Positions 16,679 to 24,187 of a stretch of DNA of 64,000 nt are shown in pieces (position 1 is the first letter of the stretch; each line of letters begins with the position of its first letter). Made by a program: the position numbers and the translations under genes. The notes beneath the pieces were generated by a model that was given only the letters and a program-made list of their open reading frames with translations, did no database searches and was not told the DNA's origin. Origin of the DNA: Sarea resinae (Eukaryota); the NCBI GenBank assembly GCA_026026165.1, contig JAPEUD010000042.1, forward strand, positions 62,001 to 126,000, in the 5' to 3' direction.

Positions 16679-19314
16679 ATGTCTTCGTCATCGGCAACCT
16701 TTATGAATCTCGATCCTCCTGAGGACTCGGGTGATGATCGAAAGGATTTCAAGCTCGACGACCAAGTCGATGAAGATGTAGTGATGGCCGGGTAAGTCCA
16801 TCTCCTTTTCATGTCTTTGCTATGAACCTTGGGCTGGTGCTCACCTCGAGTCTGGCCTGCTCTCGGAAGCTCGGTCAGATCTCATTCGACTCTCTTCTGT
16901 GCTGCCTTTCTTTCATGGCCTGACCTCGTATGTCCAACAGAACCAGAGACCAGAAGAAACATCCTTTGGTTCAGGACCAAGTGATGGGGTAAGTAGTTCT
17001 CTTCTCTTCTCAAACTCCTAATCAGCTGAGATGGTGTCTCGTCTCGAGTCTTTTCCTGCTTATCCAATCCCATTCTCATGATCTAATTTCGTACCTTGGA
17101 TAGCACCGATGGAATGGCGAACATACTTGTGACCGCAGTTTCGGAGGCACTAGAAAGCCTAGGGTAAGCAGATCTCCTTTTCTTTCCCGCTCTGAAGCTC
17201 CGAGCCGGTCCGATCTCGGACTCGAGTCTGATCCTGCTTCATCCATGCTATCTCCTCCTGAGCTGACCTCGTGAGCCAAGCAGTACCGATAGCAATGAAG
17301 GTGGCAGTGACCATGGGGATCAGCTGGAGGGCGATTCAAGTCATGAGGACGACATGTCGTAAGCTCAAGCCCCCCCGACCGAATCCCCTTTCCTTCTCTT
17401 GAAGCTCGGAACAATCTCATCTCGAGTCCGGTCCTGCGTCTTGATTCCTCATCTTGTGATCTAACGTGGGGTGTCGAATAGTCTGGAGGAGGACAATAAT
17501 CAAGGAGGTACAGCGGTTGCTTCAGCGGCCACGGCTTCTACTGTCGAAGAGGCTGTCGAAGAGGGACCGAATGAGTATGAACAGAGAGTGTAAGTGGGAC
17601 TTTCTTTCCTCCTTTCCTTTTTTCCTTTTTTCGGCCCTTATTGCTTGACCTCTTGAATATCCATGCATCAGCAAAAAAGGAGTGCTTGCTCATGGCGAAC
17701 AGTGCGAGAATGAGGGCCGAAAACCAAAAGTTGCTCAGTGACCTCGCGACTAGCGTTGCGGCAGTGAAACAGCCAGCCAAGGCTCCGGTGCCCACGATCA
17801 AGAAACGCAAGTCCCCTTTGAACATCGAAGTGCCAGCTTCCAGTCGCCGACGTTCGACTCGCATCCAGGCGCGGGAACTGGAAATAGCGCAAGAGGCTAA
17901 AATCGCCAAAGACCTCCCCGGCACGAAGGGTCCAGATACTCTGCTAGACGATGCCGCGGAAGGGATCGAGCAGGGCGTGAAGAAACGCTTCGTAGCCCGA
18001 AAAGTGGCCAAATTGCCTAAAGTCGACCGAGAGCCGTACGCCGCGCTCGGAACATATCGGGTGATCGCCGAGCGTCCCATCAATGGCCAGTACATCGACC
18101 ATGGCATTCGTGACGAACAGCAACCGACCCCTCCAGGAACAACAGAGGTCACTCCCATGCCCGAAGAAGAGGCGAGCGGAAGCCAATCTCTTGAGGCGGA
18201 TGGCCGAACGAGGACAGTACTGGAGGACGAAGATCTAGTAGCTTCGAAAGTGTTCGGGGAGATTGCAAATGTGCCAGTCGGAACCTGGTGGGAAAAGAGG
18301 ACTGGACCGCATGCGGCTCTCATCCATCGCGGATTGGTTAAGGGAATCTTCGCAGGAGAAGAGGGCTGTTATTCAGTCGTCCTATCAGGAGGCTACGACG
18401 ACGACCTCGATGAGGGAGAATCGTTTACCTACACGGGTGAAGGAGGCAGGGACCTCAACAGAGATCCGGTGACTGGAAAGCCGAGAGACCTGAGGACGGC
18501 TGCTCAATCGAAGCCACAGATCATGTCGGGCGGCAACCTGGCTTTGAAAATAAACTGCCAAACTGGAAGGCCCGTCCGGGTCGTTCGTGGTTACAAGGGC
18601 CGTAACATTTGGTCTCCTTCGAATGGGTATCGATACGATGGCGTAAGTCCTCAGTATGAACGCGTTGTCCTTGCTTGAGAGCGTGACCGTGAGAATGAGG
18701 TGTCCGTGAGGGGTAGAGAGGCTGACGATGTGTTTCTGGTGTGATAGCTGTACGAAGTAAGAAAGGTTTGGTGTGATGCGGGGATTGCTGGATTTCCAGT
18801 ATTTCGTTACGAACTGGTGCGCCTCCAGGGCCAAGCACCCATCGATCTGACCGGTAAGAGAACTCTTCCTTCCTTCTCTCTCTTCTCGTCGAGAGGTAGC
18901 CGTCAGTTGGAATCGTACTGACGAAGATGAATAGCCGGACCTGGGAGCTGGTCCCAGCCCGCGTTGGACGTGATTAGGGATAGAGCGGCGAAGGCAGCGG
19001 CAGCTTCAGCCACACCACGCGTAGCAGTGCCCAAGGCCAAGGGCGGTAAGGCCGTGAAGGATGATAAAGAGGTCACAAAGAATGCCGCTCCGCCGATTCC
19101 TCGGGCTGCTTCGTCGATTCCTCGGGCCATGCTCAATATGATCAACCAGGTGGGCAGTTCAGAGCCTCTAGATGAAGAGGAGGAGGAGGAGAAGATTCCT
19201 ATCAAGGCGGAGCGTGATAGGTATCATGATGATTTCGAACTGCAGGATCCGACCGGCGGTTCACTGGGCACACCCAAGGTCATCAAGAAAGAGTTTACCG
19301 AAGAGGATGCTTAG
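16679..19314 (+). CDS. SRA-YDG (UHRF1-type methylcytosine-binding) domain protein; exons 16679-16791, 16941-16988, 17104-17163, 17284-17358, 17482-17589, 17703-18642, 18748-18853, 18935-19314
   Basis: SRA motifs FGEIANVPVGTWW, YSVVLSGGYDDDLDEGESFTYTGEGGRDL, LRTAAQSKPQ, NLALKINCQTGRPVRVVRG and GYRYDG|LYEV. All 7 introns are GTAAG..AG and splice without stops, giving EYEQRVARMRAENQKLL across the exon 5/6 junction. The 5' exons are manual predictions. Confidence 0.85.
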
Positions 19315-19819: not shown

Positions 19820-20944
19820 TCACAACTTATTACCCCTCACCACCGCTCCCGCTACCGCTCCCTCCAACACCTCCCGGACCCCGCCCCTCGCCCTCTCGAC
19901 AATCGTCCTAGCAGGCACGATGCCGCCCCGCACAAGTCCTACTCCCGTCCCCGCATACGCCGCCACCCTGCCCTCTTTTCTCTTCTTGTCCTCTTCCCAG
20001 CCCAACCAGCCCTCATCCCCTCTTCTCATAGCCTCCGCATAGAGTCTTCTGGTCTCCGCCTCATCCACCCCGCGCTCCGCGTCCTCGAAGCTCGCATTGA
20101 TGACCCCCCTAGCATTGTATGACTCCGGCCACACTGTGCCCCGTAACCGATCGTACACGCTCGTCCGCACCGTGCTCTGTCCCCCGTCTCTAGCATGCAA
20201 GACTGTCTCTCTGTATCCTTTCGCCACCGCTGCTTCCTCGGCCACTAAGAAAGCCGTCCCCATTGCGGCTCCCTGCGCCCCTAACGCCAACGCGGCCGCC
20301 ACACCCCGATGGTCCGCTATTCCCCCGGTTGCGATCAAGGGGATGGATAGCTCTGCAGCGGCCAACGCATCGTGGACTTCTGGGACCAAGGATACTATGC
20401 TGGCACCTCGTGCAAGGCCATGCCCGCCTGCATCTGTGCCTTGAAGGACGAGGGCGTCGGGCGCGCAGGTGTGGGCGGCATGGAGGGCGGTGCTCAGGGA
20501 GCCCACTTGCATGATGATCTGAGGGGCGGGCTGAATGGAAGCGCGGAGGACACTGGTCCAGTGAGCTAGGGACGACGGGTTGGAGGAGCTATTCGACGAC
20601 GAGGAAGGGGAAGAAGAAGGAGGGGCAAAGAGCCAGATCGCGGCTGGGGGGTTCTCTCTCAGCGCCTCGACCAGATCTTCGACCTTCAAAGCCCACGTGA
20701 TCACTCCTACGCCAATAGGCAGCGGCGAGATGGATGCATTGGCAATGGGCCCTTTTTCGAGTAGTTCCCGAGCATGTCGGAGACTGGTGGCCAGCGTGCT
20801 GGTGTCTGTGCCTCCGGCCAGGAAGCCCAGTCCGCCTGCTCTTGAGACGGCGACGGCAAGGGCAGCGGTCGAGATGAGGCGCATAGGGGCGGACACAATC
20901 AGGGGAGACTGCGTCCACGGGTAGGCTGATTGGAGGGAGGTCAT
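19820..20944 (-). CDS. Nitronate monooxygenase / 2-nitropropane dioxygenase family (FMN TIM barrel)
   Basis: YPWTQSPLIVSAPM, AVSRAGGLGFL, LVLQGTDAGGHG, IATGGIADHRGVAAALALGA and YAGTGVGLV. First ATG at 20944. Confidence 0.9.
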   Translation of the reverse strand: MTSLQSAYPWTQSPLIVSAPMRLISTAALAVAVSRAGGLGFLAGGTDTSTLATSLRHARELLEKGPIANASISPLPIGVGVITWALKVEDLVEALRENPPAAIWLFAPPSSSPSSSSNSSSNPSSLAHWTSVLRASIQPAPQIIMQVGSLSTALHAAHTCAPDALVLQGTDAGGHGLARGASIVSLVPEVHDALAAAELSIPLIATGGIADHRGVAAALALGAQGAAMGTAFLVAEEAAVAKGYRETVLHARDGGQSTVRTSVYDRLRGTVWPESYNARGVINASFEDAERGVDEAETRRLYAEAMRRGDEGWLGWEEDKKRKEGRVAAYAGTGVGLVRGGIVPARTIVERARGGVREVLEGAVAGAVVRGNKL

Positions 20945-21657
20945 GATGGTGATTATAGAAGCGTGAGGGATGAGGAAACTGGCACCGGTGCACTTGTATG
21001 ATGGATGACTTTGGAACAATGACTCGACTGGCTTCTCTTATTCTAAAGTATCCACGTCTGCTCCTTCTGGCCGAATGGCGTGCCCTCTATATGACGACGA
21101 CGACGATGAGCTCCCGAAGAGAAAGGCCGAGGAGAAAGCTCCAGGCTTTCTCCGGATCTCTGGGATGAGGTGTGGAGAGTGGAGAAGGAGGCCCCGGGGG
21201 TGATCACATCTGCCCCACGACGGTCCCTCGGTCATCATAGCCGAGATTTATGTAAGCCAGCCCCGGAGGAGAACGGCGATCCTGGAACAAAGAAGGGCCG
21301 GTTTGGACGCGGCCGTGCACCCCAGTGCAGTGACGGCCCCAGTGACGGGATATCTTCATCTTCATCTTCATCTTCCTCTTCATCTGCATCTGCAGCTTCA
21401 CCCTCATCCTGATGCTCCCCCTCTTCACCAGATCAGTGCTCCCTCCGCACTATAAAACGGCGCCCTGAGCCGCCCCTTCCTTCTTCTCTCGACACCCTCT
21501 CCACCATCTCGAAAGCCTCCATTCTTCTCGCTTCAACCCCGCCGGCTCTTGACACGAAAGAACAACAGAGAACTGCATTTGCGCCTCGCCAAACGCTGTT
21601 GCTCAACGACGATAAAAGACATCCACAACAACTTGTGTTACATATTGAACGGCAAAC

Positions 21658-22916
21658 ATGAATGCTCCAGATAGGTAAGCTCCCTTGATCTCTCTACATA
21701 TTCCTTTTCCCTCCTGGCTCTCGGCGGTCGCTCTTCCCGGACTCGAGGAGGCCGTTCTGGATGGTTCCTTTGTCGACGTTGATCGCGGACGATGCACGAT
21801 GTTGTCGAGAAGTGGCTACCAGCTTTCGAAACATGAAAGAGCCATGCATTGCTGGCCTGGGCGCAACATCTATATGGATCCATGGAGCAACCACATGTGC
21901 GCTGAAGGCGTGGACGAGCTCGCCATGCGACTCGACGCAACTCGACTCGACTCGACATCCGTCAAGCAAACCTCTGAAGGAATGCAAACGCCGCCCAATG
22001 CAGACGACGGATTCAAACAGTACATCTAAAGTCGCTGATGCTTCGAACATCCATTCACTCCCTCAACTCGGCGAGCTATAAAAAAAGGCCGCTCCTCACC
22101 TCGTCCATCCCTTCTTCTTTCTTTTACAACCTCATACCTCTCACCTTCCAAATCAATTTCCTGTTTCATATCAATCCTCTACACCAACATTCAAAAGATA
22201 CAGCGATCCTCAAAGATGGCCGAGACTCCGGGTTTTAACCACCACAAGATCGTCGCCAAGGACACGGCCGGCTCGTCATCCTCCCAAGATGACTCTCACC
22301 TCCACATCCAGCCCGGGCAGCAGAGCCTGGCTCTCCAGAACGCCGTCGAGAGCAGCCACGTCGCAACTCCTGACCATGGCGAGTCTAACATCCCTTCTAG
22401 ATTCGAGCTTTTCCTCCTCGGACCCGGCGAGCATAAAGTTGATTGCGAGGTCGACACCCGTAAGTCTTCCGCTCCTCTCCTCTACCTCACCTCACCTCAC
22501 CTTTGCCTCCTCACACCATACCATTTACCTCTCTCTCACTCTTTGTACCATCACCACCGATCCAAAAGCAAAAGACTAACCTCCAAATTTCCCCAACCTC
22601 AGGCATCCCCAACTCCATGATGTTCACCTTCCACAAGGAAGACCACACGCTCGGCAACCTGCTCCGCTCGCGCCTTCTCACGAGCCCCCACGTGTATTTC
22701 TCCGCCTACCGCGTGCCGCACCCGCTCGTATCAGACTTCGAGCTCCGCATCCAGACGGACGGCGAGATTACCCCCAAGGCTGCCCTTGTCCAGGCCTGCC
22801 GCGACATCGTCCAGGACCTTGGCAAGCTCGGCCGCGAGTTCACCAAGGAGTGGGAGTTGAGGCGCATGGTGACCCAGGAGGGCCAGCGTGGTGCCGGTGC
22901 CGGTGGAGATGTTTAG
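21658..22916 (+). CDS. RPB11: RNA polymerase II subunit Rpb11; exons 21658-21674, 22401-22459, 22603-22916
   Basis: Spliced product MNAPDR|FELFLLGPGEHKVDCEVDT|RIPNSMMFTFHKEDHTLGNLLRSRLL...AYRVPHPL...RIQTDG...FTKEW matches the Rpb11 signature. Donor GTAAGC at 21675, branch CTAAC at 22385, acceptor TAG ending at 22400. Confidence 0.93.
22077..22215 (+). promoter_or_regulatory. Putative internal promoter and 5'UTR inside RPB11 intron 1
   Basis: TATAAAAAAA at 22077, then a CT/CA-rich leader and ctcaaagATGG at 22216, in frame with exon 2. Confidence 0.5.
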
Positions 22917-24187
22917 GTCGGCTGGTCTGTGTGGGTCTGCGTTGAGCGGAGCTGCAGAGGTCTTTTGAGGTTTGCTTAGAAGGCAATGGGGGCTGGGTTG
23001 CAGCGGTGGTGACGATGAAGGAGGATTAGTTTCGGGGAAAGGGGATAGTCGTGGATGGTCACTCAATCCAAATCAACCAAGGCAGCCTCGTCCTGGCGCC
23101 CGCGGATTTGCCTTTTCTTACGGTTTTCTTCCATCTTTCTTCCCTACTTCCTTTCTATCTTTCTGCTCACTTCTTTTCTTCCTTCCCTTCTCCTTCTTTA
23201 CAACCTCGATCCCTCCTTTCTTCATTCCACTGGACTCACTCATCACCACCACGATACCTTTCCCTCAGCACGCCACCCCAGCGTGTCAGTCAAGTCGGCT
23301 CAAGCGCCCATCTCACACCCACGGCGTCTATCTGCAACCACATCCAAATTCGGGGCGTTCTAAAAGCGATCTAGCACCAAAAAAAAGAAGATATTTCAAC
23401 AAACTCCACAAAACCACACATGACGGTTACGGGGCCGGGCGGGGCCGACTACGGTTTTCTACGGCCTACAGGATTTCGGGGACTTTTTTCCTTTTCTCTT
23501 TTCCATGAAACGGGGGCATTTGAGAGGTTTAGATAGTCATCTCAAATCAAATCCAATCAGATCCGATCAAACCCGATCAAATCCGATATTGCTCGTTCTT
23601 TTCGGACTCTTCGTGGGCTACGACTGGTGACTAGTGATAATTGACTGGCTGAATGACAACTGATAATTGACTACTACTGAGTGACCGACTATTTATCTAT
23701 TGGGATTTTCTAACTATCTATCAGTGGATAGGAGATGGAGGTGGAGGAGAAGGAGGGAGAGTATGATGATGATAGTGATTATGTGAGAATCCCGATGGGT
23801 GATGTCAAGTGCCATAAAGTATATTCACATGGCTGTTTCACTATCACTTTCATCTTCACTTTCATCTTCAGCTTTCCTTCACTTTTCACCCTCCACCTTG
23901 CAACTTCCATTGATTCCTCTGTAGGTAGCAACGTAGGTATAGGTATTGCGTATCAAACAAGACAGGGTTCCAATTTCGACTATTATCAAATCTTATTCAA
24001 TCTAGGTACACTCGCATCGCACCACTTCGCATCGCTTTGCATCGCATTTCCATTTTTCATGCCCATGACCCACCACTTCCAAATATAGGGCCAAACCCTT
24101 CCCCCCCCCCCTCTCTCTCTCCATCGCTCCATCTCTCCCTCCTTGCCATTCATTCATCACTCAATTCACGAACGACATCGACGACAA

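Follow-up and report, generated by a model that had tools for sequence, protein, structure and literature searches.

The RPB11 gene of the fungus Sarea resinae appears to carry two alternative first coding exons, the second of them nested in the first intron of the canonical transcript. We examined it in a 64,000-nucleotide (nt) stretch of assembly GCA_026026165.1 (contig JAPEUD010000042.1, positions 62,001 to 126,000 of the forward strand; hereafter the window, with positions counted from its first letter). Rpb11 and Rpb3 together form the assembly platform of RNA polymerase II (Pol II), and Rpb11 is usually treated as an invariant housekeeping protein. The explanation towards which we lean is that one of these exons gives the canonical subunit, while the other, transcribed from an internal promoter, would give a long form with 61 additional N-terminal residues. 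The features on which this explanation rests are the following (all on the + strand):

21451-21457: TATA box TATAAAA of the upstream promoter P1 (match to TATA[AT]A, followed by a CT-rich block with a CT fraction of 0.72-0.77)
21458-21657: leader 1, the putative 5' untranslated region (UTR) of the canonical mRNA, ATG-free by ATG count
21658-21674: exon 1a, a 17-nt micro-exon encoding MNAPD and the AG of an arginine codon (direct reading)
21675-22400: intron 1 of the canonical mRNA, 726 nt (direct reading)
22077-22086: second TATA box, TATAAAAAAA, of the putative internal promoter P2 (TATA[AT]A scan)
22087-22215: leader 2, CT-rich and ATG-free, upstream of the second start (ATG count; codon log-likelihood ratio (LLR) -0.07, GC content at third codon positions (GC3) 0.41)
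22216-22400: predicted coding part of exon 1b, with an ATG at 22216 opening 61 codons continuous with exon 2 (frame, codon usage, deposited protein)
22401-22459: exon 2 (FELFLLGPGEHKVDCEVDT...), common to both forms (direct reading; aligns to yeast Rpb11)
22460-22602: intron 2, 143 nt, GTAAGT ... CTAAC ... CAG (splice confirmed by deposited protein P0001)
22603-22916: exon 3, with the Rpb3/Rpb11 dimerisation domain and the stop codon TAG at 22914-22916 (PF13656)

In the proposed mechanism, transcripts from the upstream promoter (TATA at 21451) would keep exon 1a, splice out 726 nt, and encode the canonical 129-residue MNAPDR-FELFLL protein. Transcripts from the internal promoter (TATA at 22077), with a transcription start site (TSS) predicted at about 22100-22200, would lack the exon 1a donor, so that the final 185 nt of the "intron" would be exon, and translation from the ATG at 22216 would yield a 185-residue protein consisting of the 61-residue tail and the same Rpb11 fold. 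The bases immediately preceding exon 2 would then serve as splice signals in the canonical mRNA and as S-N-I-P-S-R codons in the long form, which would keep the N-x-P-x-R spacing of the canonical N-terminus. Four parts of this mechanism are inferred: that transcription also starts at a second site, that the long form is translated, that it enters Pol II, and that any choice between the two forms is regulated.

The identity of the gene is clear. Exon 3 alone scores 96.3 bits and P0001 94.6 bits against PF13656 (RNA_pol_L_2; cut-off 27), residues 58-172 of P0001 align by HMMER to residues 2-116 of the yeast Rpb11 chain (E=2.7e-33), and 12 distinct PDB sequences match P0001 at E<=1e-10. The conserved N-terminus NAPDR-FELFLL is encoded by exon 1a and exon 2, and in the HMMER alignment the NIPSR-FELFLL segment of the long form pairs with the yeast chain from residues 2-6 (NAPDR) onward. 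One copy of RPB11 lies within the window. The NCBI entry P0001 ("MAG: hypothetical protein [Sarea resinae]", 185 residues), the sole longer-protein match among 13 candidates of a word-index search, equals exon 1b, exon 2, and exon 3 exactly. A first-pass annotation of this stretch had expected automated annotation to report only one of the two forms; that is the case, the public model being the extended one and the micro-exon the part that was missed.

Two starts at one locus

The elements that the first-pass annotation had described at this locus were all found on direct reading of the window: the micro-exon start MNAPDR with its GTAAGC donor, the TATAAAA at 21451, and the 726-nt intron on the one hand, and the second TATA at 22077, the leader, the aaagATGG at 22216, and the stop-free 61-codon frame into exon 2 on the other. 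Exon 1a begins with the ATG at 21658-21660, and intron 1 has its donor GTAAGC at 21675-21680, its branch point CTAAC at 22385-22389, and its acceptor AG at 22399-22400. Intron 2, at 143 nt, falls within the 50-200 nt that the first-pass annotation had given for introns elsewhere in the window. The second start has the context caaagATGg at 22216, its frame is without a stop from 22039 onward, and codon 62 (AGA) combines the acceptor AG with the first base of exon 2. In its last 16 bases, exon 1b also holds the branch point, pyrimidine tract, and acceptor of intron 1. Either first exon can be joined in frame to exons 2 and 3. An unspliced reading from the ATG at 21658 ends after six codons at the TAA at 21677-21679 (AGG TAA).

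The in-intron frame has the codon usage of the genes around it. With codon frequencies trained on 23 non-overlapping long open reading frames (ORFs) of the window, the log-likelihood of 22216-22398 is 0.210 bits per codon in its own frame, and the two alternative frames give -0.18 and -0.45. The training ORFs themselves give 0.153 +/- 0.107 per codon, and none of 158 off-frame windows reaches 0.210. The GC3 of 22216-22398, at 0.75, exceeds the 0.63 and 0.45 of the alternative frames and bears out the earlier remark that the frame is rich in C- and G-ending codons. Under a stricter null, made of 79 open stretches of 61-119 codons from regions free of long ORFs, the score is attained by 3 stretches and the GC3 by 1. 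The coding signal starts at the ATG at 22216: the 59 open codons upstream of it score -0.07, with a GC3 of 0.41. Judged by codon usage, then, 22216-22398 is predicted to be coding. In an AlphaFold2 model, the residues 1-60 encoded by exon 1b are coil (block mean predicted local distance difference test (pLDDT) 49-67, against >90 for the domain), and the 61-residue tail is probably disordered.

The surroundings of the two starts are organized alike. Between 21000 and 22500 the + strand has only two matches to TATA[AT]A, at 21451 and 22077, and at both starts the TATA is followed by a CT-rich block (CT fraction 0.70-0.77) and then by an ATG-free leader, so that a start codon, an ATG-free leader, and a core-promoter motif of its own are found for each first exon. 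Leader 1 has no ATG in 200 nt, where 1.8 would be expected from base composition. Leader 2 spans 129 nt, and the stretch 22079-22215 has no ATG at all; at the rate of the 394-nt interval from the donor to the second TATA (12 ATGs in 21675-22068), 4.2 would be expected there (Poisson P(0)=0.015). Altogether, 13 ATGs lie between the two start codons. Given these intervening ATGs, and with the first frame stopping after its sixth codon, ribosomes that start at the upstream cap and scan a transcript in which the intron is retained would seldom arrive at 22216; we therefore prefer an internal promoter for this window. On the sequence, a second promoter for exon 1b is most likely.

Elsewhere the arrangement may work differently. 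Ten entries, the window among them, have at least 390 nt between the exon 1a ATG and exon 2; they have 1-13 intervening ATGs, and a TATA-like motif occurs in 4 of the 10. Of the nine other long-distance loci, three have a TATA-like motif in the intron (L046, L051, and L059). Among ten examined loci with only 220-316 nt from the exon 1a ATG to exon 2, seven (L055, L080, L069, L045, L008, L007, and L043) have no ATG between the canonical one and the in-frame one, which follows 19-108 nt downstream. In such short-distance loci, one promoter with scattered starts or intron retention could be enough, and the mechanism in other fungi may be different from that in the window. In L007 and L043, the first in-frame extension ATG sits inside the micro-exon donor GTATGT, 19 nt past the canonical ATG.

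Predicted second first exons in other fungi

Extended models of Rpb11 are common in public protein collections. Among the 120 homologues listed of 127 at E<=1e-10, 27 have the canonical start, 3 have it embedded behind an upstream in-frame extension, 75 have some other N-terminal extension (at least 10 residues long in 73 of them), and the models of the other 15 are short at the N-terminus. Each class has extensions of its own, which recur among its members. Those of lichen-forming Lecanoromycetes end in ...RP.AE[DES]N[VI]P.R before FELFLL, and the ending in the window, ESNIPSR, resembles the conserved extension ending of named relatives such as ESNVPTR. Penicillium models have a common ...AIARERAGR... 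and end in DAPD-V, models of the Aspergillus fumigatus group have a common ...MAYAR...GGSR...NDQPR-S, Chaetothyriales extensions end in SNIPDR, and Dothideomycete-like loci have a recurrent DPRIHGN.G.K. P. roqueforti has been deposited with both models, a canonical one of 128 residues and an extended one of 163.

Assembled contigs add further examples of both forms. A Cenococcum-like fungus has a 185-residue protein found only in Logan, on a 1108-nt contig (of RNA or DNA origin) that holds a short alternative N-terminus and the full coding sequence, as well as the canonical 129-residue form on a 1074-nt Logan contig (the two forms being P0128 and P0130). Other fungi have canonical spliced forms on short Logan and JGI contigs. 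The 185-residue ORF of the Cenococcum-like fungus contains MRITSEEDERPR-FELFIL, and its 12-residue alternative start resembles MRIPAESNVPTR of Ostropomycetidae lichens. Three Umbilicariaceae-type models (P0004, P0007, and P0008) begin with MSAPD/E, which resembles the canonical start, and run on for 131-144 residues to ...AE[DS][ND][VI]..R-FELFLL; from their sequences it looks as if the whole first intron had turned coding.

At the DNA level, an alignment built from 36 of the 120 proteins was run against metagenome contigs and returned 80 loci. With the window segment these made 81 sources; one lacked a domain anchor and six lacked the exon-2 motif, and dereplication of the remaining 74 at 90% identity left 51 loci, in the following classes:

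8 of 51: canonical start running straight into exon 2 (cDNA-like or intronless)
18 of 51: micro-exon, frame open for 50 codons or more, and an ATG 30 codons or more upstream (window included)
11 of 51: micro-exon, but a shorter frame or no ATG
5 of 51: upstream DNA too short
9 of 51: no micro-exon seen

The micro-exon (ATGAAYGCNCCNGAYAG followed by GT) was found 220-741 nt upstream of exon 2 in 28 dereplicated loci other than the window (220-744 nt with the window included, n=29), and the same intron spans about 200-720 nt in those 28. Taken modulo 3, the ATG-to-exon 2 distances of the relatives include all three residues. In 19 of the 28 micro-exon loci the frame of exon 2 stays open upstream for 50 codons or more, compared with 6 of 28 for a control frame, with median open lengths of 72 and 18 codons (Wilcoxon p=8.5e-5, the loci being phylogenetically non-independent); 17 of those loci also have an ATG at least 30 codons upstream. 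Since the extensions are mostly unalignable between groups, the frame would have been kept open separately in different groups. Judged from these sequences, the layout is a widespread architecture across several classes of Pezizomycotina and no quirk of this window.

A second first exon can also have a donor of its own. A search for such exons in 9 of the 11 loci with a shorter frame or no ATG identified three (L079, L022, and L024), with introns of 136-193 nt and the donors GTCAGT, GTCTGC, and GTGCGT. The Penicillium-like L079 (707-1215) ends in ...EVPD-V before the donor GTCAGT and a 136-nt intron, the Aspergillus-like L022 in ...YDQPP-R, and the lichen-like L024 in ...NDVPP-R, and all three peptide ends match named Penicillium, Aspergillus, and lichen models. 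By sequence, these three loci are predicted to have a pair of first exons that exclude each other and share a splice phase. Two further loci, L031 and L066, have shorter versions of extensions known from relatives.

Signs of selective constraint on the frame

Nucleotide alignments of 12 locus pairs suggest that the part of the frame nearest exon 2 may be constrained. In the last 40 codons before exon 2, every gap has a length divisible by 3, whereas the remaining intron also has gaps of 1, 2, 4, 8, and 13 nt, and identity is above that of the rest of the intron in 10 of the 12 pairs. Differences summed over the pairs are 144, 116, and 205 at codon positions 1, 2, and 3, with position 3 the largest in 9 of 12. 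The ratio of non-synonymous to synonymous substitution rates (dN/dS), from protein-guided alignments over 60 codons, is 0.19-0.41 in three lineage groups. In several lineages, then, the stretch adjoining exon 2 evolves as coding sequence would, and the exon 1b product reads as a fast-evolving, probably disordered tail with a better-conserved segment beside exon 2.

Splice signals that may also be codons

In the window, the CTAAC branch consensus and the pyrimidine/AG tail encode S-N-I-P-S-R, with the branch-point A 12 nt before the acceptor G. This coincidence recurs across loci. A YTRAY branch consensus stands 12, 15, or 18 nt before the acceptor G in 19 of the 23 ORF-bearing entries, always in the phase NYT-RAY, where it reads [A/V/I/S]-[D/N]; in the other four (L005 and lichen-type loci) nothing better than a degenerate nTAAY stands at that place. 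In nine loci without an ORF running into exon 2, the branch distances are 12, 15, 15, 15, 15, 16, 16, 16, and 19 nt. The ending is also kept away from the branch point: [DN]-x-P-[DP] is found where exon 1b has its own donor (L079, L022, and L024) and in 7 of 10 Penicillium models. Because it persists there without overlapping a branch point or an acceptor, selection would act on the protein as well. These sequences point to a protein-level need for the canonical N-terminal residues as the source of the N/D-x-P-x-R end, which may also be a trace of an origin of the intron by duplication of the end of exon 1.

Alternative explanations

Several results weigh against a second first exon that is in use. 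The resemblance of NIPSR to NAPDR, to which the first-pass annotation had drawn attention, is real and general across loci, but it is partly forced by the splice signals, because Asn or Asp is the branch point, Pro the pyrimidine tract, and Arg the AG plus a purine. The two promoter/leader regions are not significantly alike (their local alignment score of 25 is reached by 21 of 200 dinucleotide shuffles), and this score was rejected as evidence of a promoter duplication. ORF length alone is weak evidence, since a control frame of the same stretch is likewise open, for 106 codons. The body of the extension has no homologue detectable by sequence: a lichen-type extension hidden Markov model built from 28 of the 120 homologous proteins scores it at 4.2 bits, which 49 of 500 shuffles reach, and phmmer with the 81 residues of exon 1b and exon 2 against 1.84 billion representatives gave one match, at 43% identity over residues 5-30 within a 1174-residue protein. 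Extended public models are no proof of expression, because gene predictors routinely miss 17-nt exons. The signs of constraint are uneven: dN/dS, at 0.19-0.41 in the three groups above, is 0.5-0.9 in several other pairs or groups, and three of the 12 pairs lack a third-position excess (L055-L072 with 4/8/4, L055-L080 with 25/20/21, and L045-L010 with 14/11/13). Of the 28 metagenomic loci with a micro-exon, 5 (L041, L042, L068, L050, and L056) have no convincing second exon, and in L040 (3357-3879) the frame is open for 174 codons and includes the DPRIHGN motif but has no ATG. A non-AUG start could explain this, as could a spliced exon farther upstream or an error in the sequence. Finally, the one metatranscriptome contig of this organism (wood decay, 204 nt, identical to 22745-22948) covers exon 3 and the 3'UTR only and is silent on the 5' structure; the remaining metatranscriptome matches are conserved pieces of other fungi.

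These points could be taken to mean that only the canonical 129-residue protein is made and that the in-intron ORF is a relic or a chance frame picked up by a predictor blind to the 17-nt exon. The missing homologue of the extension body, the open control frame, and the five related loci without a convincing second exon all fit such an account, as do the eight cDNA-like loci, every one of which joins the canonical start directly to exon 2. It would leave unexplained why the coding signal begins exactly at the ATG at 22216 and resembles that of real exons, why leader 2 is ATG-free and preceded by a TATA, why ESNIPSR matches a conserved extension end, and why the exon-2 frame is open so much more often than the control frame, and we consider it unlikely. 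The converse, that only the 185-residue form is made and the MNAPDR micro-exon is a dead relic, agrees with the deposited model and with the Umbilicariaceae-type models that continue from MSAPD/E without a micro-exon splice. Against it, the micro-exon, the GTAAGC donor, the TATA, and the ATG-free leader are all intact, the branch-point consensus stands 12 nt before the acceptor, the 17-nt element and its donor are kept in 28 other dereplicated loci, and canonical spliced forms exist on Logan and JGI contigs of other fungi; we regard it as highly improbable.

A long form might instead be made without any second promoter, by intron retention or from the scattered starts of a broad promoter, through leaky scanning or re-initiation. 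The short-distance loci, 7 of the 10 examined having the in-frame ATG directly behind the canonical one, would suit this account. It is hard to reconcile with the 13 ATGs between the starts in the window and the end of the first frame after six codons, with the TATA and CT block at 22077 that mirror the upstream promoter, or with L079, where exon 1b has its own donor and a CT-rich leader of its own upstream, and we give it little weight. Two alternative first coding exons, with the long form arising from an internal promoter, thus remain the explanation that we find somewhat probable overall. Of the original proposal of two isoforms from alternative promoters, the intact starts, the coding signature, and the recurrence of the layout stand; the condition-specific Pol II variant that it also raised is conjectural. 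The body of the extension is not conserved outside the species. A bolder extension of the preferred explanation is that many Pezizomycotina (Lecanoromycetes, Eurotiomycetes, Dothideomycetes, and Sareomycetes) have kept an exon-1b isoform of Rpb11 for hundreds of millions of years and, by choosing between promoters or first exons, make two versions of Pol II or an unbound Rpb11 that moonlights; we offer this tentatively, as something that may be true but that we would not assume.

Other features of the region

Other contents of intron 1 were considered and rejected. The length of 726 nt is a multiple of 3, which puts exon 2 in the frame of the canonical ATG, and after its first stop that frame is open for 116 further codons (21679-22029, +; LLR 0.06, no Pfam match). 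An in-frame retained intron (exitron-like) read from the first ATG was nevertheless rejected, given the TAA at 21677-21679 and another stop before 22039. A small nucleolar RNA (snoRNA) or other RNA gene was rejected for lack of any Rfam match inside the intron at E<=1, and a nested gene in its 5' part because the four ORFs there (107-130 residues, both strands; codon LLR -0.10 to 0.06) have no Pfam match above threshold. Upstream of the gene, a sub-threshold Rfam match to the archaeal C/D-box sR53 (21126-21191, +; 20.9 bits against a gathering threshold of 49, E=0.06) was taken as chance.

Short tandem repeats were seen by eye at three places: (CTTCAT)n-like at 21350-21400, directly upstream of the first TATA, (ACTCG)n in intron 1 at 21935-21955, and (CACCT)n in intron 2 at 22485-22510. 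The neighbouring ORF is a divergently oriented nitronate monooxygenase (19820-21037, -; PF03060, 124.8 bits), which uses the same intergenic region as RPB11 promoter 1, and farther upstream lies an ORF with a SAD/SRA domain (17581-18675, +; PF02182, 102.3 bits).

Significance and comparison with known systems

If a second N-terminal form of Rpb11 is selectively maintained across several fungal classes, then Pol II would be heterogeneous and regulated in its composition, or Rpb11 would have a second role, and the question is directly testable in tractable moulds. The locus would also offer a clear example from nature of bases with two duties, as codons and as the branch point, pyrimidine tract, and acceptor of a splice. 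On the practical side, the inconsistency of the public models (27 canonical, 75 extended, and 15 short among the 120 listed) affects orthology tables and proteomics search databases. Literature searches on Rpb11 isoforms, N-terminal extensions, and alternative TSSs in fungi found no description of N-terminal forms of fungal Rpb11.

Canonical Rpb11, as in S. cerevisiae RPB11 (PDB 1i3q chain K), belongs to the same family and has the same fold, and exon 1a supplies the same MNAPDR start. The yeast chain begins directly at NAPDR, whereas here the second start would add 61 residues, and the NAPDR-equivalent residues of the long form would be the codons of an intron branch point and acceptor, unlike those of yeast Rpb11. 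In humans, the POLR2J forms are products of duplicated genes, and it is their C-termini that vary; the variation described here differs from theirs in arising at one locus and at the N-terminus. A precedent for more than one form of this subunit is the human Rpb11 isoform hRPB11b-alpha of the POLR2J family, named in the title of a reference in PMC13374769. The same 2026 review, which deals with alpha-like subunits, mentions a disordered N-terminal extension of AC40, the alpha-like subunit of Pol I and Pol III, and in the relevant passages has no fungal case (PMC13374769). Like the predicted long form, AC40 would thus be an alpha-like assembly subunit with a disordered tail before its dimerisation domain; its extension is a fixed part of the protein, whereas the one described here would be an optional alternative first exon.

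Alternative TSSs that give N-terminal protein isoforms are well described in fungi, going by the relevant passages of a review (PMC9604717) in which the phrase "RNA polymerase II subunit" occurs 0 times. The cases in those passages resemble RPB11 in having one gene, two starts, and a difference confined to the N-terminus. They differ in direction: there, the downstream TSS leads to a shorter protein without a targeting signal or domain, whereas in RPB11 the downstream start would give the longer protein, because the upstream micro-exon is spliced over that region. Trichoderma Xlr2, described in PMC11121469 as having a functional micro-exon switch, is, as far as that description goes, another case in which a micro-exon of a filamentous fungus decides the form of a protein. 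In that transcription factor an internal micro-exon is included or skipped, whereas in RPB11 the micro-exon is itself the first coding exon and would compete with a second first exon.

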